From Candidatus Woesearchaeota archaeon (GTDB taxonomy: Archaea; Nanobdellota; Nanobdellia; Pacearchaeales; GW2011-AR1): a stretch of DNA of 64,000 bases. The stretch is from contig CAYHPN010000005.1 of the NCBI GenBank assembly GCA_964358765.1, forward strand, positions 13 through 64,012, given 5' to 3'. A model generated the notes under the pieces. It saw only the letters and a program-made list of their open reading frames with translations, was not told the DNA's origin and did no database searches. A program made the position numbers and the translations under genes. Below, piece by piece: positions 26,111-54,117 of the stretch (the first letter of the stretch is position 1; the number at the start of each line of letters is the position of its first letter).

Positions 26111-26173
26111 ATGCTAATTGAAATTAGTTTAGCATTATTGATTGGAGTTATAGCTGGAACTTTCACCGGCTAA
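26111..26173 (+). pseudogene. detached 5' end (20 codons) of the TctA/DUF112-like gene whose body is at 52954-54117; contains attL
   Basis: Own reading: MLIEISLALLIGVIAGTFTG*. It ends at the core TTCACCGGCT (26162-26171). A TATA-like tatataaat lies about 50 nt upstream. Confidence 0.65.
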
Positions 26174-26260
26174 CGAACCCACAGTTTTCCGAGAATAACT
26201 CTCTTTTTCTAAAAAGCGTAATCATTACGCTACAAATCATTTAAAATAGGAAAACTGAAA

Positions 26261-26746
26261 ATGTATATGGGAAGAGATAAAAATAATCCGAGTATCGTCT
26301 ACATAAACTATCAAATAAGAAGTAATGGGAAAAAGATTAACATATTTGATAGAGTTAATCAGATAAAAAAGGACATCAAAGTATTGCTTCCAGAAATTGA
26401 GGACGATAAGTTAATCTCAATGTTCTCTCACATGAGAAGATATTACGAGGGTAAATTACATTATGGAAGAAGAACAAATCCAGAAAATTGGGATAAGAAA
26501 CAAGATTTAACCGAAGCTGAAAAATTAATCTATGACTATCTTCTAAAGAATAAATTGAATCCTTCTACAACTTATAGGTGGATGTTAACTTGCAGAGTGC
26601 CAGCAGACATCAAAAGCAAGCTCATAGAAGGCAGATTATCTTACAAGAAGGCTCTTCAGATAGCCTCAAATAGAAAGAGAGTAAGAGAAAGCAATACTGG
26701 GCTTTTAATGATGGAAGAAATAAACAACATCGTGAGGAGTTTATAA
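26261..26746 (+). CDS. conserved element protein (integrase-associated, unknown function)
   Basis: Homologous to 37378-37878 (shared IFD(R/K)VN(Q/E)IK, LNPSTTYRW, GL(L/I)MMEEI). The stop overlaps the integrase start (TAATG). Confidence 0.7.
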   Translation: MYMGRDKNNPSIVYINYQIRSNGKKINIFDRVNQIKKDIKVLLPEIEDDKLISMFSHMRRYYEGKLHYGRRTNPENWDKKQDLTEAEKLIYDYLLKNKLNPSTTYRWMLTCRVPADIKSKLIEGRLSYKKALQIASNRKRVRESNTGLLMMEEINNIVRSL

Positions 26747-27630
26747 TGGGAAATAAAAACAAACTGCCAGATAAATTAAGAAAAGAACAAATGGTGAAAT
26801 TATTTGAGGTGATGTATTTACCTAAATGTTCCATAGGTTGTTTTACTGCTTTAATGTGTGGATTACGAGTTAGAGAAGTTTGCAGACTTGAAACCTCAGA
26901 CATGAATTTAGAGGCAAGAGAAATCAAAGTAAGGGATAGTAAAAATCCCAACAGAAAGAAGCAACATGATTACGGCAAAGATAGAATTGTTCCAATTCCA
27001 GAAATAGCAGTCTCTCCGATAAAGAAATGGTTGGATGTTATTCAAGGTGGAAAATGGTTTTTGCCTTCAATGAAAAGCCCAGACATGCACCTAAGACCTA
27101 AAACATTGCATGAATGGTTTAGAGAAGCAAGGAAAAGAGCGGGTCTTGATGAAGTTGAATATGTTGTGAAATATAATAAGAAAACAAAGTATAGGGAATC
27201 AAGCCCAGTTTACAAATATAGATTTCATCATTTCAGGCATTTCTATGCTCAATATGTTTATGACCATACCAGAGACCTGTATGCTGTATCAAAGTTACTT
27301 GGGCACAACCAAATAACGACGACAGAAATTTATGCAAGGATGTCAGATAAAACAATGAAAGAAAGTGTTGACTTTAGTTTCAATAATCCAATAAGAACCA
27401 AAATCTTTGAGGATAATCCAGTTAATGCCTTGAATTATAAAATTCCTACAATCGCAAGACAAAGGGAGAAATCTCCGATAGAAATCCTTGAAGAAAGATT
27501 TGCCAGAGGCGAAATCTCCGACATAGACTTCCAGAATAAGCTGAGGCTTCTAAAGCTCAGAAAAGATTATCTGAAGGATAAGGATACTGAAGAGCTAAAG
27601 GAAAAAGAGATTGAAAATAGAGAAAATTGA
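26746..27630 (+). CDS. tyrosine recombinase/integrase
   Basis: Catalytic signature: GLRVREVCRLE (Arg I), HHFRHFYAQ (HxxR), LLGHNQITTTEIYARM (His...Tyr). Confidence 0.88.
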   Translation: MGNKNKLPDKLRKEQMVKLFEVMYLPKCSIGCFTALMCGLRVREVCRLETSDMNLEAREIKVRDSKNPNRKKQHDYGKDRIVPIPEIAVSPIKKWLDVIQGGKWFLPSMKSPDMHLRPKTLHEWFREARKRAGLDEVEYVVKYNKKTKYRESSPVYKYRFHHFRHFYAQYVYDHTRDLYAVSKLLGHNQITTTEIYARMSDKTMKESVDFSFNNPIRTKIFEDNPVNALNYKIPTIARQREKSPIEILEERFARGEISDIDFQNKLRLLKLRKDYLKDKDTEELKEKEIENREN

Positions 27631-27663
27631 ATTATTATTCAGATTTATTAAAGGAAGGGATTA

Positions 27664-27855
27664 TTATTCTATTGATTCTTTTACAAGATTCTCTATTTCT
27701 TTATTTCTAAAATCTATTTGTCCCACAAGTTTTTTCGCTTTGAGGGATAATCGTTTATACATAAACTTAATTTTTTCTTTAGCCCTTTCTCTCCCATTCC
27801 GTTTTAAATAAGATGGAATATTATAATCAAAATATGCTAAACTATCTGCATCCAT
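27664..27855 (-). CDS. hypothetical small protein
   Basis: ORF track only (63 aa). Same strand as the downstream cargo block. Confidence 0.3.
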   Translation of the reverse strand: MDADSLAYFDYNIPSYLKRNGRERAKEKIKFMYKRLSLKAKKLVGQIDFRNKEIENLVKESIE

Positions 27856-27896
27856 TAATGTATTCGAATCCTTATCTCCTCCAGACTCATGATTTT

Positions 27897-29000
27897 CTAC
27901 AAGATGCTTAACCCTATTAATAACCGATTCGGTATAATCATACTTTTTAAGAAATCACTAATAAAGTTAGCTGACCTTATTGCGTGCTCTTTTTTAAACT
28001 CATTTATTTTAGAATAATCTTTTAAATCTTTTTCAGTAATTTTTGTAATTGCTCTATCTATATCGTGTGATAGGGCTGAAATTTTTAAAGATTCATCAGC
28101 ATCTGGATTCAATTTAAGCACCCACTTTAAAACGAGTTCAGAGTGTTTTAATTCAAAATCTAATGGAGAATTGGGCAGAATATTTTCTATTTCCCTTTTA
28201 ACTAAATCAAATTTATTTTCTTGTAATTGTTTTGTATAATAAGTAGCGATAAATTCAGGTTTAAAACCAATTCGTTCATAAAAATTAAAGGGGTAATGCC
28301 CTTTCTCTGTAGCAAGAAAATGGATTTTATTTCCTTGCTCAAAACTCTTTTTAACACAATAAAGACTAATTCTTTTTCCAAAACCCTTTCCCCTAAAAGA
28401 AGGAATTGCTCCTATTCCAGATATATATCCCATACCATTATAATTAGTTAAAATTCCTACGGCTACGGGAGTCTTATTATCTAAAACTAAAAAATATTTA
28501 TCCTCTTTTGTTTTTTTCTCATTCCAAGCTTTCCGTATAATATTCGCAAATTGAGTTTGTTCACCATAAGGATTTTGAGGGTCATCTTTAGGATAACTTT
28601 TAATAAATGTTTCTATCCATTTTTCAAATTCTTCATTAGATTTAACTTCGATTATATCTGTTTCATCCACAGAAGGAATATCTTTATTCCAAAACATCCA
28701 ATAATCTTTTGAAGAAATCTCATACCGTTTATTCAAGAGAGATTTAGATATTTCTTTATATTTTTCATCATCAAGAAAATAGATTGTAGGTTTTTTATCT
28801 ACTTTCTTAAAAAAATCCTCTATTTTTTGCAATTCATCATCTGTAATTAGTTTTTTTAGAAAAGCGAAATTCCACCAGACATCAGAATTATCTCTACAAT
28901 AAGTCAAAATAACATTTTCCGTTTCTTTAATTTTTGTAAGAAATTTAGAGTTCATATAAATATAAGCTCTAATTATATCTAACCTATTTTCAGACTTCAT
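27897..29000 (-). CDS. GNAT acetyltransferase fused to an HD-domain-like C-terminus
   Basis: GNAT acetyl-CoA motif FRGKGFGKRISLYCVKKSFEQG...FYERIGFKP. The C-terminus has H...HD (LKHSELV...LSHDIDRA). Confidence 0.65.
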   Translation of the reverse strand: MKSENRLDIIRAYIYMNSKFLTKIKETENVILTYCRDNSDVWWNFAFLKKLITDDELQKIEDFFKKVDKKPTIYFLDDEKYKEISKSLLNKRYEISSKDYWMFWNKDIPSVDETDIIEVKSNEEFEKWIETFIKSYPKDDPQNPYGEQTQFANIIRKAWNEKKTKEDKYFLVLDNKTPVAVGILTNYNGMGYISGIGAIPSFRGKGFGKRISLYCVKKSFEQGNKIHFLATEKGHYPFNFYERIGFKPEFIATYYTKQLQENKFDLVKREIENILPNSPLDFELKHSELVLKWVLKLNPDADESLKISALSHDIDRAITKITEKDLKDYSKINEFKKEHAIRSANFISDFLKSMIIPNRLLIGLSIL

Positions 29001-29532
29001 ATTCCCATCCTGCTTGCCATGCTTTTCTTTTTCTCCAATCTTCGTTAAATGCTTGTTGCCAAGTCTTGCCTTTTAACAAAACATCTAATGCCAACTGGGG
29101 TGCTTTGTGAGAAACTATGGCAACCCTTTTTCCATCATAATCTTTTTTAAGAAGTTTAATAAAATCTGCTATTCTCTTTTTTACATCTTCATAGCTTTCA
29201 CCATTTGGAAACTTCTCATGAATACATTCTTCTTGCATTGGCTCTACAATTTCTGAAGACTTTCCATTAAAATCTCCATAATTGCATTCCCTTAATCTTT
29301 TATCTTGCTTAATTGGGAATCTATCTTTAAAACTTATTTCAGCAGAATCGACAGCCCTCTTTAAATCAGAGCAGAAAACAATATCAAATTTCTTATTTCC
29401 TATTTGCTTTGGTAGTTCTTTTGATTGTTTTATTCCTAATTCAGAAAGCCCAACATCTTTCCAACCCGAAGATATATCTTTTTGATTATCTGTTGTTGTG
29501 CCATGAACGAAATAAGTTATTTTTATAACCAT
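28990..29532 (-). CDS. histidine phosphatase (phosphoglycerate mutase/CobC-like) family protein
   Basis: N-terminal YFVHGTTTDN (variant of RHGxT), LSELGIKQ and SDLKRAVDSA, typical of the family. 180 aa. Confidence 0.65.
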   Translation of the reverse strand: MVIKITYFVHGTTTDNQKDISSGWKDVGLSELGIKQSKELPKQIGNKKFDIVFCSDLKRAVDSAEISFKDRFPIKQDKRLRECNYGDFNGKSSEIVEPMQEECIHEKFPNGESYEDVKKRIADFIKLLKKDYDGKRVAIVSHKAPQLALDVLLKGKTWQQAFNEDWRKRKAWQAGWEYEV

Positions 29533-29533
29533 T

Positions 29534-29923
29534 TTATAGATTTATTTTTTTAGAAATTTCATTAATATTCTTGTAAATTATTACTTCATTAGATATTCCT
29601 TTGATTGTTGTAGATATATCTGAACCTTCTTTAGCTAAAACAATGATTGGTTTATTTTTAGAATAAGCATAACCTGCTTCAATTCCGAGACCTACTCCTT
29701 TTTCTGAAAATTCTACTAAAAGCATATCTGCTTTATCAATTTCTTCAAAGGTTATTTTCATTAATTTATCAGGTTCAAATTTAACTTTTCCCCATTTTTC
29801 GTAATCTCGTATAATTGTCCTTACCCTAATGCCTACTTTTTCAAGCTCTTTACAAATATCTTCAATTAATTTTCTATTATTACAATCCTCATGAAACTTT
29901 ATAGACAAGAAAGCATTTTTCAT
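29534..29923 (-). CDS. nucleoside 2-deoxyribosyltransferase-like protein
   Basis: The KADMLLVEFSEKGVGLGIEAGYAYSKNKPII pattern (Gxx(E)xGYA...KPI) resembles the NDT-like/Rossmann-like family. 129 aa. Confidence 0.5.
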   Translation of the reverse strand: MKNAFLSIKFHEDCNNRKLIEDICKELEKVGIRVRTIIRDYEKWGKVKFEPDKLMKITFEEIDKADMLLVEFSEKGVGLGIEAGYAYSKNKPIIVLAKEGSDISTTIKGISNEVIIYKNINEISKKINL

Positions 29924-30531
29924 TTTAGTTTTCTCCTTAACTCATTCCAAGAAATTCTTTCAGCCCAGTTAGTAAATGGAGGATTAGTGAGAATCATTTC
30001 TTTTTCTTTTTCACTTCCTGAATAAGTCGCAACACCTTCAGTTAAAACTTTGACATTGTAACCTCTCCAGCTTAATTCTTGAGCAGTGCAGAAAACACAG
30101 CAATCAGAAGTTAGCCCTATGAGGACAACCTCATCTAAACTATTTGGTTTGCCTATCGTTTTGTCTAACCACTTTGTAAAAGCTTTGGGGTCTTGATAGG
30201 GTAGTCCTGCCTTCTTTTTAGGATTTCCAATATTCTCTCTTACCCAGATTGGAGAGTTCATACATTTAACCCAAACAGGTTTTTGTTTAATGTCCTCTGG
30301 AATCTCTGATTCATAGCCCCATTCTCCAGCTCTACAACTATCATCATTATCTGCTGGTCTCGGTAAACGATAGTCCGATATTATTTCAGCTACCTTAATG
30401 TTATGCTCTCTAAAGTAAGGGACTAAAGTGTTCTTAACAAAGTCAACACTCTTTCTGGGTCTATAATGCTTTCCTTTTTTATCACTAAAATCTTTCTGAA
30501 AGTCGACTGAGATTATTCTTATATTTGCCAT
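29920..30531 (-). CDS. isochorismatase-family cysteine hydrolase (nicotinamidase-like)
   Basis: Asp (IISVDFQKDF), Lys and nucleophile Cys (VVLIGLTSDCCVFCTAQE), typical of isochorismatase/PncA-like hydrolases. Confidence 0.7.
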   Translation of the reverse strand: MANIRIISVDFQKDFSDKKGKHYRPRKSVDFVKNTLVPYFREHNIKVAEIISDYRLPRPADNDDSCRAGEWGYESEIPEDIKQKPVWVKCMNSPIWVRENIGNPKKKAGLPYQDPKAFTKWLDKTIGKPNSLDEVVLIGLTSDCCVFCTAQELSWRGYNVKVLTEGVATYSGSEKEKEMILTNPPFTNWAERISWNELRRKLK

Positions 30532-30536
30532 GTTTT

Positions 30537-31823
30537 CTATTGTTTTAGCTTATCTTTAAATTTTTCCTTAAACCAATTATCAAGGTAAGGATAATATTTC
30601 TTTTGGATATTCTTTGGTAGTTTAAAGAAATCTCCATAAACGATTTTTCGGCATTTTTTACTTCCACATAAACATTTCATTTCCCAACTATCAATTCCAT
30701 TAACAGAGTAATCAGAAGTAATTTCTTCTCCCTTTTTTATATCTCTCAAAGCTATATCGGTTTTATTGCGAACATAAGTATTTGGGTCACAAGAATGATT
30801 AACATATCTTTCAGGTTCTCGCATTACCATATAATTACCTTTTCCATCAGGAGTTGTATGATTTCTTTCATCTTCGGGAAGGCTTTTCATTTCTTCTTCA
30901 CTAACTATTTTCTTAGGATGCCAAACATTTACAGTCTCGCCTTTCTTTATATCTTTTAGAGCAAAAACCCCTTTTCTATCAATGCCTGAGCTTTTTACTT
31001 CTATTGCTGAATCCATACTATTCTCAGTTTTAGGGGTTATATAAAATGAACTTTTCTTATCCCAACCATACCAAATTAAATAAATCGTTCTTGAAAACCC
31101 CCATAAAACTACCCCCGCTGATAAAAAGATAAAAAAGAGCTTAGTTATTCTATGAAATAAATTAGGTTCAAGATAAACTTCGCCATTTGGATAAAATATC
31201 ATTGTTTTTGCATTCTGGAGACTCCAATTTGTTAAACAAGAATGGCACATATACTCTTTTCCATTAATTATGCAGGGTTCACCAATAGATTCATTTGCAG
31301 TATCTGGAAGACATTCGCTTTTATCAACTAACCCCCCACTTTCCATTTCAGGTAGAGTAAAGGTAAAACCATAAGAAAGTTGGAAGGTTATCTTATCTAC
31401 CCCATCTGGAATATTAACACATTTCTTTCGAGTAATATTAAAAGATTCTCCATTATTAAAACTTGCAGAAAAAGTCTGATTGTTTGTAAAATTTGTTTTC
31501 TCAAAGCAGAGTTTATCTCTACCTCCCCCTAAATATATAATTTTCCAAAAGAGAGTATTAATATTTCCTGAGCTTAAATCTTCTTGAGTTAAATCAAAAA
31601 CACCCAGACCTATGTAAGTAGTATTATCAGATTCTATTTTCTGGAGATTGTCTGAAGGTATTTTTAAATCTGGAATCAAATAAAAATTGACCCATAAGGC
31701 TACGATTAAAATTGCTAAAAACCTTATAACTCTTCCTCTCTTTTGATAAAAGTCTTTAGTCATTTTAACAAAATTCTTCAAACTACCGTAAATATTTTTC
31801 ACTGAAATTGAAAGTTTATTCAT
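30537..31823 (-). CDS. membrane-anchored SET-domain protein (putative lysine methyltransferase)
   Basis: C-terminal SET motifs: GIDRKGVFALKDIKKGE, NHSCDPN, ALRDIKKGEEITSDY, and post-SET-like CLCGSKKC. Two TM helices (ILIVALWVNFYLI; LFFIFLSAGVVLWGF) flank a ~170-aa Cys-containing domain. Confidence 0.75.
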   Translation of the reverse strand: MNKLSISVKNIYGSLKNFVKMTKDFYQKRGRVIRFLAILIVALWVNFYLIPDLKIPSDNLQKIESDNTTYIGLGVFDLTQEDLSSGNINTLFWKIIYLGGGRDKLCFEKTNFTNNQTFSASFNNGESFNITRKKCVNIPDGVDKITFQLSYGFTFTLPEMESGGLVDKSECLPDTANESIGEPCIINGKEYMCHSCLTNWSLQNAKTMIFYPNGEVYLEPNLFHRITKLFFIFLSAGVVLWGFSRTIYLIWYGWDKKSSFYITPKTENSMDSAIEVKSSGIDRKGVFALKDIKKGETVNVWHPKKIVSEEEMKSLPEDERNHTTPDGKGNYMVMREPERYVNHSCDPNTYVRNKTDIALRDIKKGEEITSDYSVNGIDSWEMKCLCGSKKCRKIVYGDFFKLPKNIQKKYYPYLDNWFKEKFKDKLKQ

Positions 31824-31924
31824 AAAATAAGTAAGATTAGGATAATTTTAAGCATTTGCATACCCTCCATGCAAGTATCTCTTATTGAATAGATTATTAT
31901 TACTATTATTTCATCTGAGCGTCC

Positions 31925-32361
31925 TAATGGGTTAGGGGTGTCTGCTTTTTTGAATGTTTTCGAACTACCAAAATAATTCCCAATATCATGGGTATTGTTG
32001 GATTAATTCCTGCTGTGCATGTGTGTCTGCGTGTTAGCAGACAGGAGAGAGCCGAGAAAAAAATTCTCATCTTTGACGCTCTCCTCACCTTATCGAGGCT
32101 ATTTATAGAGGAGAACTAACAGTTTAAACCCCTTGCCCTATTCAACAAGAGACCTCTTTCTGAAAGCTGTCTGCCCCCAGTGTCTAATAAGTTGACCTCT
32201 GGAGGAAAAATAATATTTTGTCGAATGTAAATTCAGTTTTCTAAATCAAAATTGAAACAGGGTCAATGTCTGAAAATCTTCAGACAGGGAAAGTAGACAG
32301 CGATAGAGTATCCTCAAAGTGCGATACAAATCTTTTATACAAGAGGGACTAAAAGAATGGA
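31925..32361 (+). promoter_or_regulatory. conserved non-coding region with TGTCT(G/A) iterons, a hairpin and a TATA-like box
   Basis: Block-wise conserved with 39275-39731. Forward TGTCT(G/A) at 31939, 32024, 32168, 32181 and 32267. Reverse AGACA at 32037-32044, 32281-32287 and 32294-32300. Hairpin GTCTGC(32025)/GCAGAC(32037). ctatttatagagg with tttata at 32102-32107. Confidence 0.6.
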
Positions 32362-32853
32362 ATGGTAAAGACTTATGGAGCAGTAGATAGAAGACATAGA
32401 AAGAGAAGAAGTGATGCTGGAAGAAAGAGAAGAAGTTATAGGGGCAAACCTGTTAAAAAGAAAAGAGATATTCTCTGGCAAAAAAGAATCGGAGATAAAC
32501 AAACATTAAAACTATGGGTCTGGGAAAAGGGAACAATGTCTCGGGATGGAAGAAGTAAATGGAATAGAAGAATCAGACCTTTCATCAAACCAATAGTCTA
32601 CAGATTCAGAATGAGAATTGATGCTGATATTTCTTACCTAACTACTAAAGAAAAGATTGAACAATTCCTTTTAGATATAATTGAATATGATGGCGAGTTT
32701 CTTCTTATGGGTTTCAGCAATGCAAAAAATAGGTTTCATACTAAGCCAGTAAAAATTTGTAGAGTTGTTATATTCAATTCGAGAGAAGGACTTAGAGCCA
32801 GAATGATTCAAGATTACAGACTATGGAGATACTGGTTTTACAAAGGAGATTAA
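32362..32853 (+). CDS. conserved basic protein coupled to the serine recombinase (unknown function)
   Basis: Homologous to 39741-40226 (shared LKLWVW(E/Q)K(G/E)TMS, GRSKWNR, RPFIK, RMRIDA, SYLTTK, MGFSNA, KPVKICR, MIQDYRLWRYWFY). It ends 1 nt before the recombinase start. Confidence 0.7.
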   Translation: MVKTYGAVDRRHRKRRSDAGRKRRSYRGKPVKKKRDILWQKRIGDKQTLKLWVWEKGTMSRDGRSKWNRRIRPFIKPIVYRFRMRIDADISYLTTKEKIEQFLLDIIEYDGEFLLMGFSNAKNRFHTKPVKICRVVIFNSREGLRARMIQDYRLWRYWFYKGD

Positions 32854-32854
32854 A

Positions 32855-33613
32855 ATGGAATCTAAAACAAATTCACAAAGTGCAGTAGCTTATATTAGAT
32901 TATCTTCTGATGATAGTTCTAACCCTTCACTATCCCCTCAAAACCAACAAGACATTATAAGGAATCATGCAGAAGCCAAAGGACTAAACATAATTCAAAT
33001 ATATGAAGACATAAACAAGACTGGCTCTAACATCTTCAGAAAGGGGCTTGAACAATTAATGAAAGATGCAAGAGAAGGAAAATTCAATACAGTATTTATT
33101 AAGGACTGGTCAAGGCTCTCTCGAAACATCATAGACCAAGAAACAATAATCAAAGAGCTAAACAATCTCAAAATAGAAATAATCTCTTGCGATGGTATTG
33201 AAGACAAGAAAGCAAGACAGGTGACAGGACTAACAAATGAATGGTTTATTGATGAGTGCAAAAAGAAACAGCAACAAGTTCATAAGTTAAAACTGGAAGC
33301 AAAAATCCCTTGCTCCAGAGCCCCGTATGGATACTCTATGAGTAAGAAGCTAAAGAAATTTATCGTGAATCAAGAAGAAGCTCAGGATGTAAAAAAGATA
33401 TTTGAATTAAGAAGTGAAGGAAAATCAATCAGTGAAATAGCCCGAGAGTTTAAGATGTCTCCCAGTAAAGTTTTTGGAATACTAAGGAACAAGACTTATC
33501 TTGGTTTTATAAAATACAAGTCCGAATTAATTCAAGCCCATGAACCTATAATAACTGAAGAGATGTTCAGCAGGGTGAATAATAATTCAGTTTATTCATC
33601 TGGAAAAAAATAA
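32855..33613 (+). CDS. small serine recombinase (resolvase/invertase-type)
   Basis: Catalytic N-terminus AVAYIRLSSDDSSNPSLSPQNQ. HTH GKSISEIAREFKMSPSKVFGILRN. Long identical stretches with 40219-40962 (QIYEDINKTGSNIFRKGLEQLMKDA). Confidence 0.82.
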   Translation: MESKTNSQSAVAYIRLSSDDSSNPSLSPQNQQDIIRNHAEAKGLNIIQIYEDINKTGSNIFRKGLEQLMKDAREGKFNTVFIKDWSRLSRNIIDQETIIKELNNLKIEIISCDGIEDKKARQVTGLTNEWFIDECKKKQQQVHKLKLEAKIPCSRAPYGYSMSKKLKKFIVNQEEAQDVKKIFELRSEGKSISEIAREFKMSPSKVFGILRNKTYLGFIKYKSELIQAHEPIITEEMFSRVNNNSVYSSGKK

Positions 33614-33993: not shown

Positions 33994-34056
33994 AAAAAAT
34001 CAATAATCTGCCTTCTTATAAAGTTGTTGGATATTGCCATCTATTTTTTATATTGA

Positions 34057-34512: not shown

Positions 34513-34587
34513 AATAAAGATTTATTAAAGAAGCTATATTAATTTATCTAACAAGAGAGTAGATAGTTTGTATTTTATCTGATATAA

Positions 34588-37878: not shown

Positions 37879-37879
37879 A

Positions 37880-44835: not shown

Positions 44836-44841
44836 TAAACA

Positions 44842-45528: not shown

Positions 45529-45591
45529 AATGGAGTCTACCTCAAAATGCAATTCCGATAATTCTAAAAAGTTCGCTATAATGGGGTTAAT

Positions 45592-46158: not shown

Positions 46159-46159
46159 T

Positions 46160-46857: not shown

Positions 46858-48085
46858 GAAATTATTCTATTGTTCTCCCAATCCCTTGATGCGTTTTCTA
46901 TGGGAGGACGAAATCTCTGCAACATTATACTGTATTGCCAACACCCTATTCATGTTAGAAAAGAAAATTAAAAATGAAGAATCACAAAAAACTGTGAGTA
47001 TTGATTACTTTGGAGAAATCACCCAAGAAAACCAAAAGAAAATAAGTGCTCTATTAAGAAATATAGTATTAGATGTTCTATGCGAGGATGTTAATTTTGT
47101 CTTCAAAAAGCGAGAGTTACCTAAAAGTAAAAAAAAGAGAACCCCTACTTTTGAGCAGATTGATACTATTTGTTTATTCTCAGGAGGAATTGATAGCACT
47201 TTAGGAATACTTGAAAGTAAGAAGAAGTTTGATAAAGTGATGGGGCTATATATCGCCCATCAAGATTTAGGAAAGATTACCAGTAAAGTTGACAAAATTA
47301 AAAGAGAAGTATTAGACAGTGTAGGAATCCCCCTCTTTAAGTTTATAGCTCCCAGTATGGGGCAGGGGTATTCTCAACTTAGAGGTTTTCTATATGTTTT
47401 GTATTCTGCAATTTTATCAAGATACGTAAATGCAAAAAGAGTAATTGTAGCCGAATGCGGGGCTACAATGTATCAACCAAAATTTGCACCACTGGATACA
47501 ATCACATACACCACTCATCCAAGTGTCTTGAAACTCTCCAAACAAATATCTGAAATTATCTTAAAGAAACCATTTGAAATAATTACTCCTTTCGAAGATT
47601 TTACAAAGACCGAGATGATGACTTTACTCGCAGATGATGCATTACTTTCAAAAACACACTCTTGCGTAACTTCAAGATGGGATAAAAACTGCGGAACATG
47701 CTATGCTTGTATTTCTCGAATGATAGGAAGCGTAAATTTGGGTCTGTCTATTGATTATTTCAGGAGCAATGTTTTTGAAAGAAAAGATAATGAGATGTTA
47801 TCTTCTTTGATTCATTTTTGTTTAAACTTTGAGTTGCATCAAGACAATATTGACTATTGGTCTTTGAAAACAATTAAGTTATACCATAAAGAAGATTTAT
47901 TCACCAGAGCAAGTCAAGACATTTTTCTTTGCCTTAAAAAATTAGCAGAATTACAGAAACTGGATTCAGGTTATGAGATAGTTCTGGATTACTATTTGAA
48001 ATTCAAGTCAAAAGAACTTAGTAAAAGAGAAGAAATAATTAAAACCAACAGACTCTCAGCAAACTTTGAAAAAAAAGTTATTTAA
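46850..48085 (+). CDS. QueC-like PP-loop ATPase with a ~100-aa N-terminal extension
   Basis: PP-loop CLFSGGIDSTLG. The Cys motif C-x8-C-x2-C-x2-C (HSCVTSRWDKNCGTCYACISR) has the spacing I recall for the QueC zinc site. Confidence 0.75.
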   Translation: MAKKLFYCSPNPLMRFLWEDEISATLYCIANTLFMLEKKIKNEESQKTVSIDYFGEITQENQKKISALLRNIVLDVLCEDVNFVFKKRELPKSKKKRTPTFEQIDTICLFSGGIDSTLGILESKKKFDKVMGLYIAHQDLGKITSKVDKIKREVLDSVGIPLFKFIAPSMGQGYSQLRGFLYVLYSAILSRYVNAKRVIVAECGATMYQPKFAPLDTITYTTHPSVLKLSKQISEIILKKPFEIITPFEDFTKTEMMTLLADDALLSKTHSCVTSRWDKNCGTCYACISRMIGSVNLGLSIDYFRSNVFERKDNEMLSSLIHFCLNFELHQDNIDYWSLKTIKLYHKEDLFTRASQDIFLCLKKLAELQKLDSGYEIVLDYYLKFKSKELSKREEIIKTNRLSANFEKKVI

Positions 48086-48648
48086 TCTCTTTGTATCGGA
48101 ACTTTTCCCTCTGCCTGAATTTCTTTGGATAGCTCGATAATTAATGCATCATTTTTCTTAACAGTTTCTACACTGACACCTGTCGCAAATGCAATATCTC
48201 CCTCATCATTGTATATTCTATTTGGACTATACCAGTCACGAAGCCCTTCGGGGTCATATGGCTCATAACCTTCTAAGATTCGTTGTTTAAGGGTTTCTCT
48301 ATATCTCTCCTCTTCTTTTTGTTTACACTCTTCAGGAGATTTTCCAAGAGAGATTAATGCAGGTATTAGAGAAGTCCATATCTGATTTTGTAAATCTTCC
48401 ATAAAAGTAGGATGTTCGATTGAAAGCTTCATAATCTTATTATAGGACTCGTCATCTTTAATCCACTTACTCACAGTATCCTTTGAGACTCCAAATCTGC
48501 GAGCCAATCTTCTCAAGCTATAATGCTGAGGACAATCCATATGTAACCATCTACAAAATCGAAGCTCTATTAATCTCCGATATTCAATTTTTAATTTTAG
48601 TAATCGTTTAAATTCTTTCAAATCCTTAGAAGATAAATCAGAGCTCAT
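48082..48648 (-). CDS. HTH-containing element protein
   Basis: YSLRRLARRFGVSKDTVSKWIK. Last gene of the minus-strand replication operon. Convergent 4-nt overlap with 46850-48085. Confidence 0.55.
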   Translation of the reverse strand: MSSDLSSKDLKEFKRLLKLKIEYRRLIELRFCRWLHMDCPQHYSLRRLARRFGVSKDTVSKWIKDDESYNKIMKLSIEHPTFMEDLQNQIWTSLIPALISLGKSPEECKQKEEERYRETLKQRILEGYEPYDPEGLRDWYSPNRIYNDEGDIAFATGVSVETVKKNDALIIELSKEIQAEGKVPIQRD

Positions 48649-48809
48649 TCTATATCATCTCCGAATCTGTTTAAAAAAGACTTTGGGCTTAATTTTCTTT
48701 TTATGCATTTAGGGCAAACCTTGCCTCGCTTAGCATAGCTATAAAAGTATTCGCCACACCTTCGACAGGGTCTTCTTCTAAGCCTCTTATTTCTTATTAT
48801 TTTTGACAT
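48645..48809 (-). CDS. zinc-ribbon protein (54 aa, below the track cutoff)
   Basis: Own reading: MSKIIRNKRLRRRPCRRCGEYFYSYAKRGKVCPKCIKRKLSPKSFLNRFGDDIE (CxxC...CxxC). ATGA overlap with the downstream gene. Confidence 0.5.
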   Translation of the reverse strand: MSKIIRNKRLRRRPCRRCGEYFYSYAKRGKVCPKCIKRKLSPKSFLNRFGDDIE

Positions 48810-48812
48810 ATT

Positions 48813-51125
48813 TTACCTCAGTGCCTTCCAGTAATCTGGCTTTGGATTGAAAATTTCCCCTCTTGAACGCAGATATTCAAGCACACGCATTAGTTTTACT
48901 GAATCTGAATAGTATTCAAGAAGTATTTTTGTATTTGCACCTATCCCCTCATCCAATCGAATTATATCTGCGAGAACATTTTGAGCGTTGATTTCCTTTG
49001 ATTTACAATCAGCATCCGAAACAGGCGTCATGACAGTCAGAGTGTCAGAAGATTCCTTATCTAATGTGTCAGGTGTCTGAAAGGTGTCAGAATGCCATTT
49101 ATTAATTTCATCGTCACTATACTTACACTCTGACACTTCTGACACTTTATTTTTAATAGAAGCAAGATTTGCATTATTTTGTCTAATTAAAATCTCACAT
49201 AACTTGAAGAATCCCAGCCTATACCCTCTTTGGTTGCCTGTGGGATTGGCTTTGTAATCAGTAAACCCTAATTCACGCATCAATATGCCTATCTTTGTAT
49301 TACTGACCTTATACTGATTATTTCCAGTAGAGTTCAATAATTCAATGAATCTCTCTTTTAAACGGTCAGTGGGTATGAATGTGTCAGTTTTAGCTCTACA
49401 ATACAAATCGATTAGGACTTTTGATAATATCATATCCCAAGAATTTTCATCGAGTTTATCGTCACGTATGTCGAATAACTTAGCAATGAAATTCCCCACT
49501 TCTTTTTCTAATTCCAAATCAACACAATGAGCCATAGCAATAATTGGTTTAGCCAGAATCCACTGCCTATTCTGAAGATTATAATTATTCTCAACAGTTT
49601 CAAGTGCATCCTTAAATTGCCTATAGTTTTGAAGCCCATTAATATAAGCTAAATCTCTTGCCTTGCTGTATTCCACATCAGTTTCAGTAGGGATTTCAAC
49701 ATTTCCTCGAATATCTTTTGATGGTGCAATTATCATATTAAGAGGGATGCTCCTCTTCTCTAAAGCTCCTTTGAGGGGATTAATTGAGCCTATTCGAGTA
49801 AATCCAGCAGGGTCAAATTCATCGGTCTGTTTTATATTGACATCATTTTGTCTTGGAACAGTATTCCCTTTCTCATAACTTCCATTAAGGTATTCGACGA
49901 GTTCAGAATCCCCCACATTTTTCTTTTTAGTATCATCAAATAATCTCTCAGCTTCTTCAATGTAAAGTGTCGCTTTATTATTGTGCCTATATCTAAAGAA
50001 ATTTGCAGGTGTCGGACAAAGAAACTTTTTTCCATTAAAAGATAAATTAGCACTTACCTTCATTCCTTTGCTTTTTGCACTGCCTGTAATCCCTCCATGC
50101 TTAATCATCAGAAACTTATCAAGCATATCCCAATAATATGTGCACATATCCCACAAAACACATAGAGAATACCATTGAGGAAACTCAAAGACCATAGAAT
50201 TATCATAGAATTTTTTAAACTCAGAATATACATTTTTGAAAGTTATATCGTCAGAATTATACAATCTTCTGCAAAAAGAATTTATAGAAGAAAGAGACCA
50301 CCGATTTCGTTTTAGGGTCATGACTGAATCAAAAACAAATTTAAAATCAGAGGATTCTGAATGTTCAGATATTATTTCGCCATTTTCAAAAACAAGAGCA
50401 TCTACTTTTTTATTTGTCAATGAATTATCTTTAGTTATAATCTCTTGATGAATCTTTGTTCCATAATATCTGTAAGTGACTCCGTTGATGTTAACAGAAC
50501 CAACCGCATGGTCAATAAGCGGAGGCAGATTAGATTCGTCAAGTATAAATGGTTTAAGTTTTCTCTCTCTTTCAATTCTTAATTTATTTAATCTAAACTC
50601 TTCAAGTAGGGGCTCTGTGATATTAATACCCTCTTCTTTATCTATAACTTCTTTTATTTTTCCTGTCTTCCAATGGGCAGTATTTTCTATTGGAATGAGA
50701 TGACTATCTATCTTTAGTTGAGAGTCACACCCATATCTGGATATTAAATATTCTCTTAGCTCCTCTCGTTCTTTTTTTTCTAATAGAGCTAACTTCATAT
50801 CATAGAAGAAATGTATATGTCTTGCTCTTTGTTCATCAGTTGAATAAGCATAAAATTTGAATCCGTCCTTTCTTAATCGAGATATTAGACTCAAATAATC
50901 TTCATAGTTGCCATTGTCCAAGTCCAGTATAATCTCATTTTTTAATAATTCTCTTTGGTTAACTTCGGAAATAAGCTTATCATTTCCTTGCACATCTAAG
51001 TAATTATGCCACTTAGATATTTTTTCGTCTCCATTTTTATCTTTGTATGTAGAAGCTAATCTAAAGTCGGTTGCCTGCTTCCCCATTTCATAATACAAAT
51101 AGTCGAGCCAAACTTTTTTATCCAT
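48813..51125 (-). CDS. replication protein: prim-pol (AEP)-like N-terminus plus P-loop NTPase plus C-terminal wHTH-like region
   Basis: AEP-like EIILDLDNG (DxD) and RARHIHFFY (HxH). Walker-A-like GITGSAKSKG. 770 aa. Architecture is like pRN1-type plasmid replicases. Confidence 0.6.
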   Translation of the reverse strand: MDKKVWLDYLYYEMGKQATDFRLASTYKDKNGDEKISKWHNYLDVQGNDKLISEVNQRELLKNEIILDLDNGNYEDYLSLISRLRKDGFKFYAYSTDEQRARHIHFFYDMKLALLEKKEREELREYLISRYGCDSQLKIDSHLIPIENTAHWKTGKIKEVIDKEEGINITEPLLEEFRLNKLRIERERKLKPFILDESNLPPLIDHAVGSVNINGVTYRYYGTKIHQEIITKDNSLTNKKVDALVFENGEIISEHSESSDFKFVFDSVMTLKRNRWSLSSINSFCRRLYNSDDITFKNVYSEFKKFYDNSMVFEFPQWYSLCVLWDMCTYYWDMLDKFLMIKHGGITGSAKSKGMKVSANLSFNGKKFLCPTPANFFRYRHNNKATLYIEEAERLFDDTKKKNVGDSELVEYLNGSYEKGNTVPRQNDVNIKQTDEFDPAGFTRIGSINPLKGALEKRSIPLNMIIAPSKDIRGNVEIPTETDVEYSKARDLAYINGLQNYRQFKDALETVENNYNLQNRQWILAKPIIAMAHCVDLELEKEVGNFIAKLFDIRDDKLDENSWDMILSKVLIDLYCRAKTDTFIPTDRLKERFIELLNSTGNNQYKVSNTKIGILMRELGFTDYKANPTGNQRGYRLGFFKLCEILIRQNNANLASIKNKVSEVSECKYSDDEINKWHSDTFQTPDTLDKESSDTLTVMTPVSDADCKSKEINAQNVLADIIRLDEGIGANTKILLEYYSDSVKLMRVLEYLRSRGEIFNPKPDYWKALR

Positions 51126-51369
51126 CAGTTGCCCCCTCTATCTTCTCGACGAAATAGCACAGCCCATTTTTTTGTAATGTCCTTACCAACTTAAACGATA
51201 AGACATAAGAATATCCTGCTTTAAGGGAAATTAAATTTCCATATAAGTTTGTCCCAAAATAGTTTTCTATCATCTTACAGACTACTAAACTATCATCATT
51301 TAGTCGAGAGGTGAAATATGATGGGAGATTAACAATCTCTACAGGCTTTATTTGGATTGTTTCAGCCAT
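51118..51369 (-). CDS. hypothetical protein upstream of the replicase
   Basis: ORF track (its start at 51372 is TTG; the ATG is at 51369). 8-nt overlap with the replicase gene. Confidence 0.45.
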   Translation of the reverse strand: MAETIQIKPVEIVNLPSYFTSRLNDDSLVVCKMIENYFGTNLYGNLISLKAGYSYVLSFKLVRTLQKNGLCYFVEKIEGATDG

Positions 51370-51535
51370 CAAGCACCTCCATCCTCAATATCTTTATGAC
51401 TGGAATTATCTCAATACCTCGTTCAGTTTTGATTTCTATAAAATCAGAATTAGCAGACAAGACGATTCCTATTTTAGAATTAGTTCCATTCAAATCTTGT
51501 TTTATTATTCGTATCCGTTTTCCAATCCAATCCAT
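51362..51535 (-). CDS. small beta-rich protein (57 aa, below the track cutoff)
   Basis: Own reading: MDWIGKRIRIIKQDLNGTNSKIGIVLSANSDFIEIKTERGIEIIPVIKILRMEVLDG. It overlaps the next gene's start. Confidence 0.4.
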   Translation of the reverse strand: MDWIGKRIRIIKQDLNGTNSKIGIVLSANSDFIEIKTERGIEIIPVIKILRMEVLDG

Positions 51536-51550
51536 GATATTATTACCTCA

Positions 51551-51706
51551 TTATTTATTCAAACAACAGAATCGAATATACTGGCTCATACTCTTACATC
51601 CAGATTCCTTGTAAAGCTTGAATAGCTTTGATTTCTCCTCCTTAGTCATCCTAACAAAGATGGGAAAATTTCTCCTTGCATTTGAGGAGGGTTCTATTTT
51701 ATTCAT
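51551..51706 (-). CDS. ribbon-helix-helix protein (51 aa, below the track cutoff)
   Basis: Own reading: MNKIEPSSNARRNFPIFVRMTKEEKSKLFKLYKESGCKSMSQYIRFCCLNK. It shares YIRFCCLN with 51699-51953. Confidence 0.5.
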   Translation of the reverse strand: MNKIEPSSNARRNFPIFVRMTKEEKSKLFKLYKESGCKSMSQYIRFCCLNK

Positions 51707-51953
51707 TACTTTTTTCTTCATTAGCCCCCTCCCTTGAAGCTAAAACCTTCACCTTCCGATATATATCATTAAGAGTAACCTGAAGTGTAGGGTTCAAACA
51801 GCAGAAGCGAATATAACTCGAAACAGTGTTAAAGCCCATTGATTCCGCTAACTGTAATAATCTTTCATGCTGAATTTTTGAGACCTTTATTTGACAAAGA
51901 TGTGTTCCTTTACCTTCCAAATCCCCTTCTTGTTGAAGCGAATTATTTTTCAT
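51699..51953 (-). CDS. ribbon-helix-helix protein
   Basis: CQIKVSKIQHERLLQLAESMGFNTVSSYIRFCCLN. 84 aa. Confidence 0.55.
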   Translation of the reverse strand: MKNNSLQQEGDLEGKGTHLCQIKVSKIQHERLLQLAESMGFNTVSSYIRFCCLNPTLQVTLNDIYRKVKVLASREGANEEKSNE

Positions 51954-52099
51954 TGTTTGACCCTCAAAATTTTATTTGCTCTTTCCTGACAGGCTAAACG
52001 AATGAAGTTGGCTAAAGTCCTATTATCAATAATACAAGCCTCTTTCACTTTCTGAAATAAGTCTTCTTCGCAATCCGCAGATAGTTTTAATCTTTCCAT
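51950..52099 (-). CDS. ribbon-helix-helix protein (49 aa, below the track cutoff)
   Basis: Own reading: MERLKLSADCEEDLFQKVKEACIIDNRTLANFIRLACQERANKILRVKQ. ATGA overlap with 51699-51953. Confidence 0.55.
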   Translation of the reverse strand: MERLKLSADCEEDLFQKVKEACIIDNRTLANFIRLACQERANKILRVKQ

Positions 52100-52206
52100 G
52101 TTATGACTATAATTGGTCATAGTTTATTTAAATGTTTCGCTTTTGACTATGATTGGTAGTAGTTATAACCAAAAGTTTTATATAGTTATAATCAATTCAT
52201 TATTCT
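52100..52206. promoter_or_regulatory. divergent promoter/operator region
   Basis: Direct repeats GACTATAATTGGTCATAG (52105-52122) and GACTATGATTGGTAGTAG (52145-52162), 40 bp apart. TATA-like ttttatatag about 25 nt upstream of ATG 52207. Confidence 0.5.
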
Positions 52207-52719
52207 ATGAAAAAGAATATAATTACTGAAAAATTTATGAAGACCAGTAGAAAAAATCCGATTATAGACTTCTGTTGGGACAAACCGAGAAAGATTACAG
52301 AGATTGCTCAAGAAAAGAGCATAAAAAGAAGCACATTAGCCTATTACTTAAAGTATCTCGAGGATAAAGGACTAATAAAAAGAGAGAGAATCCAAGAGAA
52401 ACAAACTGGAAGACCTACAATGATTGCAGTTAACAAAGAAAAGGTTGAAGAATTTGAAGGATATACAGGTGATAAATTCTTCATAGATGATAATACACGT
52501 CAAGTATTAAGTGTTATTAGAGATTCTAAGAAATCTCTAACTAATTTTGAAGTTGAAGAAAAAGCAAATATTAATGTTGATATAGACCATTACTTGGGAA
52601 AGGCTGATGAGTATGGGCTAATTGAAATCAAGTATAACCTTACAAAGAAGGGATTAGCTTTTCTGAATAAGAAAAGAAAATTCAAACCTTATGATGAATT
52701 ATACTCTGATGATGAATAA
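52207..52719 (+). CDS. winged-HTH regulator
   Basis: KPRKITEIAQEKSIKRSTLAYYLKYLEDKGLIKRE. 170 aa. Confidence 0.6.
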   Translation: MKKNIITEKFMKTSRKNPIIDFCWDKPRKITEIAQEKSIKRSTLAYYLKYLEDKGLIKRERIQEKQTGRPTMIAVNKEKVEEFEGYTGDKFFIDDNTRQVLSVIRDSKKSLTNFEVEEKANINVDIDHYLGKADEYGLIEIKYNLTKKGLAFLNKKRKFKPYDELYSDDE

Positions 52720-53058
52720 AAATTCAGAAAATATACTAAAATGCTACTAAACACACAAAAGTCGGGATGTTTTGGGCTGGGAATACATCTCAGCGTCGAT
52801 AGATATATAAACATCGACATCCTAAAGGTATTGTGGTCAAAAAAGATTAAAAACCTTTTATACCACAGCATTTGGTAGTGCAAAAAAATGTCGAAAAGGG
52901 CTATAGAGCCAAAATATCGACGTTAGAAGGCGTATAAACTCCATGTGGATTAATGGTCATTCAGCGGCTTATTTCCTGGAATACATATTAATCTTGTTGC
53001 GGCGGGACTGCTTGCTTCTATAGGATACTTTTCAGGGGTTGATGCTATTGCGCTGGTT

Positions 53059-54117
53059 GTGTTTATTGTTGCGATGTCAATAACACATACTTTTATTGAT
53101 TTTATTCCTTCGATATTTTTGGGTGCTCCGAGCGAGGATAGTTTCTTGGCGGTACTTCCTGGACATAGGATGTTGATCCAAGGTAAAGGGATGGAAGCAG
53201 TTGTTTTAACTTTGTATGGGGGATTATTCGGATTGCTTTTTGTTTTATTATTTAGTTTATTATTTGCAAAAACATTACCTTATTTTTTTGGATTTATTGA
53301 AGGAGTAATACCTTTTATTTTAATTTTTGTTTCTTTATATTTAATATTTAAAGAAGATAAAATATTAAATGGATTCATAGTTTTTATATTAACAGGATTT
53401 TTAGGATATTTTACTTTTAATTTACCTGTTCGCGAACCTTTACTGCCACTACTTTCTGGATTATTTGGAGTTAGTGGACTTATTGTAAGCTTGAAGAGCA
53501 AGGTAAAAATACCTACACAAAGAGAAATTAAATTTAGGGAGGTAAATATAGATAAATCATTTTTTAGGGCAGGAGTAGGGGCCATTATATCTGCCCCATT
53601 ATGTTCGTTTTTGCCAGGAATCGGAAGCGGACATGCTGGAATAATTGGCAGTGAAATAATCGGAAAAAACAACGAAGAGGGAAGACTATTTTTATTTATG
53701 GTTGGTGCAATAAGTGTTATTGTAATGTCTTTTTCTTTTGTTACAGCTTACGCTATTGGAAAGACAAGGACAGGAAGCGCTGCTGTTGCACAGGAAATAC
53801 TTGGAGAAATAAGTGGAGTGAATTTAATTATAATATTATTTAGTATATTAATTAGCGGGATTATTGCATTTTTTGTAGGGGTTAAACTTGCTGGTATTTT
53901 TTCAAGGAATATAAATAAAATCGATTATGAGAAGATATCTATCGGAATTATTGTTTTGTTAATTGTTGTTAATTTAGTATTGAGTAATTGGATTGGACTT
54001 GTTGTTTTGATTAGCGGGAGTACTCTAGGAGTTTATTGTATTTTATCAGGAACAAGGAGGATAAATTTAATGGGGTGCTTGCTTGCGCCTAGTATTGTTT
54101 ATTATCTTGCCGGGTAA
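53059..54117 (+). CDS. TctA/DUF112-family membrane protein, 5'-truncated by element integration
   Basis: Polytopic protein. The second-half motif FLPGIGSGHAGIIG mirrors the N-terminal LFPGIHINL, which lies in frame upstream (frame open from 52954; no ATG there; the track start at 53059 is GTG). Confidence 0.65.
   Translation: MFIVAMSITHTFIDFIPSIFLGAPSEDSFLAVLPGHRMLIQGKGMEAVVLTLYGGLFGLLFVLLFSLLFAKTLPYFFGFIEGVIPFILIFVSLYLIFKEDKILNGFIVFILTGFLGYFTFNLPVREPLLPLLSGLFGVSGLIVSLKSKVKIPTQREIKFREVNIDKSFFRAGVGAIISAPLCSFLPGIGSGHAGIIGSEIIGKNNEEGRLFLFMVGAISVIVMSFSFVTAYAIGKTRTGSAAVAQEILGEISGVNLIIILFSILISGIIAFFVGVKLAGIFSRNINKIDYEKISIGIIVLLIVVNLVLSNWIGLVVLISGSTLGVYCILSGTRRINLMGCLLAPSIVYYLAG

Follow-up and report, generated by a model that had tools for sequence, protein, structure and literature searches.

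The window discussed here, that is, the whole stretch of 64,000 nucleotides (nt) from contig CAYHPN010000005.1 of a Candidatus Woesearchaeota archaeon, bears a gene for a TctA/DUF112 permease whose 5′ end has, in all likelihood, been used as an attachment site by two related integrative elements lying in tandem. The body of the permease gene occupies positions 52954–54117 (plus strand, as for all features below unless the minus strand is given), is equivalent to codons 18–402, and its product is 75% identical to protein P0001. Its frame is preceded by a TAA stop at 52951–52953 and runs open from 52954 into the open reading frame (ORF) 53059–54117, with no ATG, GTG, or TTG between this stop and the GTG at 53059. 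Because of the absence of an in-frame start codon before this GTG, TctA is currently 5′-truncated: the first helix and more are absent, and the body is an unbroken frame of 387 codons. Far upstream lie two mini-ORFs, 26111–26173 and 37222–37287, which are translated as MLIEISLALLIGVIAGTFTG and MIIELIVALLLGVTIGCFTGL, respectively, each followed by a stop codon. The intervals that they delimit are designated element 1 (26171–37281, 11.1 kb) and element 2 (37282–52968, 15.7 kb), the crossover being set by convention directly after GGC. The coordinates, the translations, and the upstream-open frame had been given in a first-pass annotation of this DNA and all check out.

The detached starts of the TctA gene

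If mini-ORF 1 is joined to the body after GGC (52969 onward), a protein of 402 amino acids (aa) is obtained that matches the Pfam TctA family PF01970 over profile positions 2–422 of 423 (E 2.4e-43). A hidden Markov model (HMM) built from the best 120 TctA homologues, about 400 aa each, is matched over positions 1–403 (611–613 bits) when either mini-ORF is added to the body, over positions 17–403 (590 bits) by the open frame of the window alone, and over positions 52–403 (536 bits) by the ORF read from the first usable start, GTG 53059. All of these 120 homologues, which come from Pacearchaeota, Nanoarchaeota, or just an “archaeon” wherever they bear a source name, start with M[LI]IE..LALLIG..AGTFTG followed by LFPGIHINL, exactly as in the joined reading. 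An HMM restricted to their first 20 residues, when used in a six-frame search of all the sequence collected, detects mini-ORF 1 with E 1.1e-9 and mini-ORF 2 with E 1e-7. The earlier proposal that a mini-ORF and the body make up a single N-terminus is borne out by these homologues, none of which has an unlike DUF112 N-terminus, and by the end-to-end Pfam match, which establishes the identity of the gene. On the basis of these comparisons, both mini-ORFs are versions of the first 20–21 codons of the TctA permease.

The two mini-ORFs and the beginning of the body mark three junctions. The attL of element 1 (26111–26173) is composed of the original host TctA codons 1–20 with a stop codon supplied by the element, as seen from its translation, the N-terminal HMM match, and a cut point that is the same in 38 other loci. 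About 45 nt upstream of its ATG, a TATA-like box TTATATAAAT (26060–26069), read from the sequence, is putatively a part of the original host TctA promoter. The hybrid junction (37222–37287) is both the attR of element 1 and the attL of element 2; it carries an element-1-borne replacement N-terminus of 20 codons, with the stop codon lying in the left arm of element 2. Core copy A, TTCACCGGCT (26162–26171, with the hexamer ACCGGC at 26165–26170), core copy B, TTCACAGGCT(T), that is TTCACAGGCTT (37273–37283, within the hybrid junction), and core copy C, TTCAGCGGCT(T), that is TTCAGCGGCTT (52960–52970, the attR of element 2), are all present where the first-pass annotation had placed them. As a bare repeat, the core did not hold up: the window has 6 occurrences of the motif TTCANNGGCT, where 2.2 would be expected, a repeat search of the window did not return it, and the three junction copies are non-identical. 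The core repeat is weak evidence, and the significance of the junctions lies in the peptides rather than in it. A search for RNA genes at the junctions gave none; the sole RNA gene, tRNA-Val(GAC) at 56413–56486, is situated 3.4 kb beyond the right end of the array and does not serve for attachment.

The DNA of attP and attB is identical over only ~6–10 bp, and the junctions are placed to within ~6–10 bp. In the reconstructed attB, a weak dyad CAGG...CCTG, read from the sequence, is centred on the hexamer, which spans codons 19–20. In five of five pairs of ends of single elements, attL and attR share the same hexamer, with flanks differing on both sides: AGCGGC in L006/L005, ACAGGC in L018 and in L028, ACTGGC in L026, and ACCGGC in L035/L091 (the loci denoted by L are described below). 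Such an identical hexamer is what a tyrosine recombinase with a 6–7-bp overlap would leave.

Each of the junctions A, B, and C has been reproduced in 3–5 separate Hainich assemblies with 99.8–100% identity: L086 covers A and B, L087–L089 A only, L180–L183 and L185 B, and L094–L096 C. From 25809 on to the right, contig L087 agrees with the window at 100% identity; to the left, inside the gene of a metal transporter of the Nramp family, it has 328 nt (L087 1–328) with no match in the window, which is either a strain variant or a misassembly.

A shared target and a start carried by the elements

Related loci were gathered by integrase-alignment scans of species-representative genomes and metagenome contigs; their integrases are 38–78% identical, and the loci returned are from DPANN archaea. 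The integrase of element 1 (Int1) has 206 relatives at E<1e-5, the best 120 of which are 59–78% identical to it, the window's own copy aside. Of the loci, 39 extend far enough upstream; in 37 of these, the N-terminal HMM reveals a TctA start (20–21 codons, ending ..TG or ..TGL, then a stop), and a further one can be seen by eye in L030, so that, from genome to genome, 38 of 39 integrases adjoin one and the same point of the TctA 5′ end, L036 being the sole exception. The family is widespread. The distance from the mini-ORF to the integrase gene is nearly fixed (600–640 nt for the Int1 type and 860–1020 nt for the type of Int2, the integrase of element 2). The window apart, there are thus 38 further occupied sites, with locus labels that include Woesearchaeota, Pacearchaeota, and Nanoarchaeota among others. 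In several occupied loci that were checked, a small membrane/OB-like gene and a class-Ib tRNA synthetase gene lie to the left of attL, and the same pair precedes TctA in the uninterrupted locus L097. Host synteny is conserved in the right flank as well: the gene of a 623-aa protein (56873–58744), 51–59% identical to the products of syntenic genes in L001, L005, and L097, stands downstream of TctA in uninterrupted and occupied loci alike. The N-terminus is contiguous with the body in the uninterrupted loci L001 and L097, and the gene is cut at the same codon in the 38 loci, in agreement with the contiguity in relatives that the first-pass annotation had expected of the 53-kb gene.

An unusual arrangement is found in L112 (Ga0209541_10014424, 7465–9440), where TctA N-terminal mini-ORFs follow one another at 7465, 8343, and 9376 before a full element. 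Between them lie segments of ~0.9–1.0 kb that have no integrase gene and code for small proteins, HTH-like or unknown. The locus resembles a series of miniature elements or element remnants that each possess a gene start of their own.

The origin of the start that replaces the displaced one is revealed by the elements whose right ends could be traced. All six of them enter TctA with a complete start; the gene is full-length in L005 (404 aa), L028 (HMM positions 1–402), and L091 (403 aa), and in L018, L026, and L093 it has a complete start and is cut by the end of the locus. Thus, an in-frame replacement 5′ end is carried by element 1 (37222–37281) and by six relatives, and not by element 2. 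The most direct comparison is offered by CAYZNI010000001.1, which harbours a relative of element 1 with an integrase 78% and a partner protein (the product of the gene preceding the integrase) 94% identical. At its left end (L006), the displaced host start reads MLVEMTLALIVGIILGSFSG, and at its right end (L005) an intact gene starts with MIIELIIALLLGVTIGCFSG. The first 51 nt of the L005 gene match window positions 37222–37272 at 48 of 51 nt (94%), and the L005 right arm, including ~100 nt upstream of the gene, is near-identical to 37162–37272, while for the TctA bodies of the window and of the CAYZNI010000001.1 host the identity is only 62% at the nucleotide and 56% at the amino acid level. 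The left arm of element 1 (26172–26260) is in turn 89% identical to that of L006, and each of the four arms present in the window has a counterpart, 78–93% identical, in a single element elsewhere. Because the arms are near-identical where the TctA bodies diverge, the arms travel with the element and not with the host gene. The claim that element 1 brought a replacement N-terminus with it is thereby shown directly (94% in the start vs 62% in the body). A motif LGVTxG, present in all seven element-borne starts and in 1 of 24 displaced host starts (Fisher 3e-6), likewise speaks for an origin of these starts from the elements. Element 1 carries an intact replacement TctA 5′ end that is now separated from the body by element 2.

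The non-coding right arm of element 1 (36947–37221), nearly identical in L005 ahead of the intact TctA gene, contains a BRE/TATA-like sequence (BRE, transcription factor B recognition element) CAGCAAAG-TTTATATA at 37135–37150, identical in L005, and a GGAG 7–10 nt ahead of the ATG. The right arm of element 2 (52720–52959, delimited by global alignment with L091) has a TATA-like CCTTTTATACC at 52854–52864, conserved in L091. These TATA-like boxes would drive TctA after integration. In both arms, a further motif is present, GGGAATGCA at 37026–37034 and GGGAATACA at 52779–52787; in the form GGGAATNCA, it recurs ~180–250 nt upstream of the core in all six aligned right arms (the two of the window and those of L005, L018, L026, and L028). 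It was not found upstream of host-side attL starts, except for two off-position matches in L012 and L026, and may be an arm-type binding site.

The cassette of element 2 is defective. Its right arm from 52720 to 52937 is 78% identical (85% outside gaps) to that of L091, in which the TctA body is only 44% identical in amino acids. The leader ends with CGTTAGAAGGCGTATAAA (52921–52938) and is followed by a defective N-terminal copy (52939–52959). In L091, a leader ending in ...CGTTAGAAGGCGTATAA is followed by ATGGCAATATTG... (MAILGLLVALLLGVTCGTLTG) and an intact TctA gene, and global alignment of the two reveals in element 2 a 32-nt deletion that takes out the ATG and codons 2–11; the ATG at 52943 within the remnant is out of frame. 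The first-pass annotation was right in describing this copy as decayed, shortened, and out of frame and the gene as 5′-truncated; as to length, the copy is shorter by 32 nt and not by 34. A full-length but scrambled copy, as suggested by alignment with L026 and L028, was dropped, since the closer relative L091 gives a clean 32-nt deletion.

Backbone, recombinases, and cargo

Elements 1 and 2 have a common backbone consisting of a partner protein, a tyrosine integrase, a serine-recombinase module, a far-end pair of ribbon-helix-helix (RHH) genes on the minus strand, a divergent winged helix-turn-helix (wHTH) gene on the plus strand, and a right arm of ~250 nt. The identity between the two elements is 49% for the partner proteins, 36% for the integrases, 68% for a 163/164-aa protein, and 78% for the serine recombinases. 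The matching ends noticed in the first pass, with partner and tyrosine integrase at the start and RHH-like and divergent wHTH genes at the end of each interval, are thus real; the RHH calls are weak (NikA-like/MobC_2, E ~1e-3, below the Pfam cut-offs).

Int1 (26746–27630, 294 aa; PF00589, E 2e-21) comprises a catalytic domain with a SHOCT-like tail. Since its alignment to the archaeal XerA model begins only at about position 90–100, which is where Int1 residue 4–6 falls, Int1 is without the N-terminal core-binding (SAM-like) domain; this domain is typical of the tyrosine recombinase superfamily and not strictly defining for it. Int2 (38112–39236; PF00589, E 1.6e-21) aligns from XerA position 48, is intact and collinear with the L035 integrase, and likely starts with MEENKMDN..., some codons into the ORF. 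An apparent frameshift of Int2 in L180 proved to be a run of N in the scaffold. The residues R41, K66, H161, R164, H187, and Y196 are invariant in 28 members of the integrase family including Int2, and both proteins belong to the tyrosine recombinase superfamily by virtue of the PF00589 catalytic domain and the R-K-H-R-H-Y signature. Their scores with the archaeal XerA equivalog NF040815 are 90 and 97 bits against a cut-off of 220 bits; XerA is their closest solved and curated relative, yet, judging by these scores, Int1 and Int2 are not XerA.

The partner protein of element 1 (26261–26746, 161 aa) bears an HTH-like motif STTYRW, and the stop codon of its gene overlaps the integrase start; its counterpart in element 2 has 166 aa (37378–37878, 49% identical). 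A partner protein is found upstream of the integrase in 35–36 related loci. The 161-aa protein has no match in Pfam, PHROGs, NCBIfam, or PDB sequences, and an AlphaFold2 model from a two-sequence alignment (predicted local distance difference test score 73.6) gives a best Foldseek E of 0.77 with a faint resemblance to the HTH domain of ParB/KorB. The tyrosine integrase most plausibly acts as the integration catalyst, because it lies at the junction in every locus, while the serine recombinase is placed mid-element and is absent from most relatives; the partner protein presumably aids DNA binding. The operon of partner protein and integrase in element 1 is preceded, within the left arm, by a perfect palindrome AGCGTAAT-C-ATTACGCT (26215–26231); the L006 element has the identical sequence, a possible operator.

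The serine-recombinase module of element 1 (31936–33613) consists of a conserved upstream region, the 163-aa gene, and the gene of a 252-aa resolvase-type recombinase (Pfam Resolvase and Recombinase), and that of element 2 (39299–40962) of a 164-aa gene and the gene of a small serine recombinase. The modules, including ~430 nt upstream of the 163-aa gene, are 73% identical in nucleotides (31936–33613 vs 39299–40957), with stretches of 79–90%, and lie at different positions in the two elements, the remaining backbone being far less conserved. This suggests either a module exchanged between elements or a resolution system together with its site.

The remainder of element 1 is made up of cargo on the minus strand (27897–31823) encoding, according to Pfam, GNAT, histidine phosphatase, deoxyribosyltransferase-like, isochorismatase-like, and membrane SET-domain proteins, the two small RHH-like genes (35843–36236, minus strand; weak NikA-like/MobC_2 matches, homologues in element 2 and L005), and the ArsR-type wHTH regulator gene (36329–36946; HTH_5, 26.4 bits, above cut-off), which points in the same direction as the TctA start downstream of it. 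In the left host flank, the Nramp-family metal transporter gene (24616–26031, minus strand; NCBIfam Nramp_1, E 2.9e-84) is without a relative in the loci with a related element that were compared.

The closest relative of element 2 is on JACPLT010000014.1 (L035 and L091), with a partner protein 96% and an integrase 84% identical and arms 78–87% identical, the left arm (37284–37377) matching that of L035 at 87%. Between the partner gene and Int2, element 2 has an 82-aa ORF (37880–38128) that is not present in L035, where the integrase directly follows the partner gene. Profile searches assign to its cargo (41148–48085) a helicase-HNH protein, a type II methyltransferase, a Cas4-like PD-(D/E)XK protein, three unknowns, and a QatC-like protein. 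This defence-type block includes a 914-aa helicase with an HNH repeat (type IV restriction/PbeA-like), a type II N6/N4 methyltransferase, a Cas4-like PD-(D/E)XK nuclease, and a QatC-like QueC homologue. A 770-aa protein encoded on the minus strand (48813–51125) has no family match in profile searches; it is in part similar to L005 and L035 ORFs that adjoin a protein with the MTBMA_p00010_2nd domain and is a possible replication or maintenance protein. Two small RHH-like genes (51699–52120, minus strand; weak matches, below Pfam cut-offs) are followed by the HTH_45/Lrs14-like wHTH regulator gene (52207–52719), whose product is 71% identical to P0242, the protein encoded ahead of the intact TctA in L091.

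No match to a capsid or other viral hallmark was found in PHROGs, and no relative in IMG/VR contigs; as far as gene content goes, the elements are best called integrative plasmid-like (or cryptic) elements.

Interpretation and comparison with known systems

The reading that accounts for these observations is that two related elements have integrated at the TctA start, that the second carries a broken cassette, and that the gene is headless; we put its probability at about 0.88. The host is a DPANN archaeon of the Pacearchaeota/Woesearchaeota type and, as contig names show, stems from the Hainich groundwater well H43. Its TctA gene would be the attachment site to which a whole family of integrative plasmid-like elements is dedicated. 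The integrase would recombine attP with the chromosome inside codons 19–21 (TTY-ACN-GGC-YT), just before the invariant GLFPGIHINL codons, and the right arm of attP would bring a BRE/TATA-like promoter, a leader, and its own codons 1–20, which code for the first membrane helix. Integration would turn the host's own promoter and 20 codons into a dead mini-ORF at attL, and the gene body would be read from the element cassette at attR. In the window, two elements would have used the site in turn, so that 26111–26173 would be the displaced host start and 37222–37287 the intact cassette of element 1, cut off from the gene by element 2; both orders of insertion yield the observed structure. TctA would remain headless unless element 2 excises, because the element 2 cassette (52939–52959) has the 32-nt deletion and no in-frame start.

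Several observations weigh against this reading of two elements at the TctA start. The hexamers at the three window sites all differ (ACCGGC, ACAGGC, and AGCGGC), while a simple identical-overlap model, A[C/G]NGGC, predicts identity; every window site retains its left-flank hexamer, as do the sites of the L112 array, which is compatible either with recombination of overlaps that were not identical and subsequent segregation of the strands, or with mutation at a later time. No excised or unoccupied form of the site turned up in any contig of this strain, and in the protein collection the closest TctA is 75% identical to the joined protein, so that present mobility is at most putative. The promoters are likewise putative, by resemblance to the BRE/TATA consensus. 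In L036 (JAHWHY010000014.1, 9033–9983), a 39%-identical integrase abuts the C-terminal third of TctA (HMM 271–403) on the opposite strand, with no N-terminal mini-ORF present; this may be another target position in the same gene or a rearrangement. Finally, the motif LGVTxG is not exclusive to the elements and failed a prospective test as a diagnostic of the element-borne start, for it is present in P0088, the TctA of the uninterrupted locus L097 (10001–10060), where there is no remnant upstream. The DNA of the P0088 start, GCTTTATTGCTCGGTGTGAC, resembles the cassettes; it may represent the type of host from which the cassette was probably captured, or a cassette fixed after loss of its element.

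According to a rival view, which accepts the origin of the array and denies its present activity, the elements are fixed remnants: the insertions would be old, neither element would excise, and TctA would be a pseudogene nearing loss. Look-ups with Int1, both wHTH proteins, and the element 2 partner protein revealed no empty-site, single-element, or circular attP junction of the strain in any contig, contigs from at least five Hainich assemblies being all tandem; these assemblies are of low coverage (cov 3–5), and rare excision products would be missed. The deleted cassette of element 2, the three differing hexamers, and the existence of integrase-less remnant arrays elsewhere (L112) also speak for remnants, while both integrases, with conserved catalytic residues, the partner proteins, and the arm sets are intact and the TctA body still is an uninterrupted frame scoring 590 bits. 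On balance, we regard the remnant view as possible and somewhat doubtful. The wHTH gene of the element lies directly upstream of the cassette in the same orientation, and it may be imagined that the family, by exchanging the promoter and first helix, gains control over a permease conserved across DPANN archaea. With a dead tandem cassette as in the window, TctA expression would in that case hinge on the excision of element 2, which would act as a reversible on/off switch. It may further be imagined that a catalytic-only integrase and an HTH protein form a two-piece recombinase. We consider this set of proposals unlikely.

That the 27-kb interval is one composite element moving as a unit, with site B as an internal relic, is very unlikely. 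The tandem form alone is seen in the population, and the left end of element 1 with the right end of element 2 would also make a valid attL/attR pair; against this, a full set of integrase, partner, serine-recombinase module, RHH/wHTH end, and arms is present in either half, close relatives of the halves occur singly in other genomes (L006/L005, ~14.4 kb; L035/L091, ~12.5 kb), and either way the array must derive from two elements. There is only a slim chance that integration into TctA is performed by the serine recombinase (32855–33613 and 40219–40962) rather than by the tyrosine integrase. It is present once per element, is the best conserved gene between them (78% aa), and would tolerate non-identical hexamers, since a 2-bp crossover suffices for serine integrases; yet it is small (247–252 aa, resolvase-type), mid-element, and variable in position, and the related loci in which it was found are L005/L006 and L035/L091 alone, besides a weak match in L033 and a resolvase gene in L093. 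In 38 of 39 loci, by contrast, the tyrosine integrase and its partner are spaced constantly from attL. As for a chimeric assembly or a chance resemblance of unrelated small hydrophobic peptides, to which the short imperfect core and the low coverage might point, its probability is close to nil given three junctions reproduced by independent assemblies, the HMM E-values of 1e-9 and 1e-7, and the same architecture in 38 other loci from unrelated samples.

If the reading of two elements at the TctA start holds, the array, in which an intact cassette is followed by a dead one, serves as a natural illustration. DPANN mobile elements are almost uncharted and their hosts lack genetic tools. The combination of a 20-codon TctA start, a stop codon, a partner gene, and an integrase marks an element boundary in metagenome-assembled genomes to a few bases, and the integrases are candidate tools for site-specific integration in DPANN archaea, with a short target in one of the most conserved coding motifs. 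For annotation, it should be kept in mind that permease N-termini can be element-derived and that a truncated TctA may be an occupied attachment site and not a degraded gene.

In elements and prophages that integrate into tRNA genes (reviewed for archaea in PMC8371274), attP duplicates the displaced end of the tRNA gene, so that the gene survives and a fragment is left at the other junction. The TctA elements are similar in having a functional duplicate in attP, in the survival of the gene, in the leftover fragment, and in tandem arrays formed by re-use of the site; the difference is that here a protein-coding 5′ end including the promoter is replaced, and the duplicate is conserved as protein and only partly as DNA. 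Phage 21 and e14 in icd, and streptococcal prophages in the 5′ or 3′ ends of genes, likewise carry an attP that duplicates the gene end and keeps the gene functional; these cases are bacterial and concern other genes, mostly at their 3′ ends.

For archaea, a 2021 review of tyrosine recombinases mentions only scattered intragenic att sites, none of them tested (PMC8371274). Among the integrated elements of Thaumarchaeota, 14 cases of integration into protein-coding genes, all 3′-distal, have been described (Krupovic et al. 2019, PMC6563490); their short att sites were verified against empty sites, tandem integrations occur, and in one case the ORF is restored by a new stop codon from the element. 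These elements resemble those described here in being archaeal, in using protein-coding genes as attB, and in tandem integration, and differ in that neither replacement of a 5′ end or promoter nor a single gene-dedicated integrase family has been reported for them. The SSV-type (“suicidal”) integrases are also archaeal tyrosine integrases of plasmid- or virus-like elements, with attP inside the int gene, which is split upon integration (PMC7253208); in the window, both int ORFs are whole and lie 0.6–0.85 kb inside the left junctions, attP being outside int. Nor do the serine recombinases of the elements correspond to large serine integrases (>400 aa, next to att), being 247–252 aa in size, mid-element, and absent from most family members.

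The closest described system is that of the dusA-specific integrases (DAIs) of proteobacterial genomic islands and prophages. They form a dedicated tyrosine-integrase clade that targets the 5′ end of one conserved protein-coding gene, with the integrase gene adjoining the junction and a remnant of the original 5′ end persisting at the opposite one (Farrugia et al. 2015, PMC4482086), just as in the TctA family. Neither elements that target TctA nor this integrase family of DPANN archaea were described in any publication retrieved by full-text searches, and no archaeal counterpart of the dusA-type replacement of promoter and first helix was met in the literature searched; the principle is known in bacteria, and the archaeal integrase family and its target appear to be undescribed. 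Excision of DAI islands has been shown by polymerase chain reaction (PMC4482086), and the TctA family is known here from integrated forms in contigs. The TctA-family integrases are unlikely to belong to the DAI clade, as their best matches are XerA-like, although far below the XerA cut-off. Those of the Int1 type are devoid of a core-binding domain and always paired with an HTH-like protein of ~160 aa. The host here is archaeal (DPANN), so the promoter supplied would be of the BRE/TATA type, and the target is a TctA/DUF112 permease, in which the replaced segment is a transmembrane helix.

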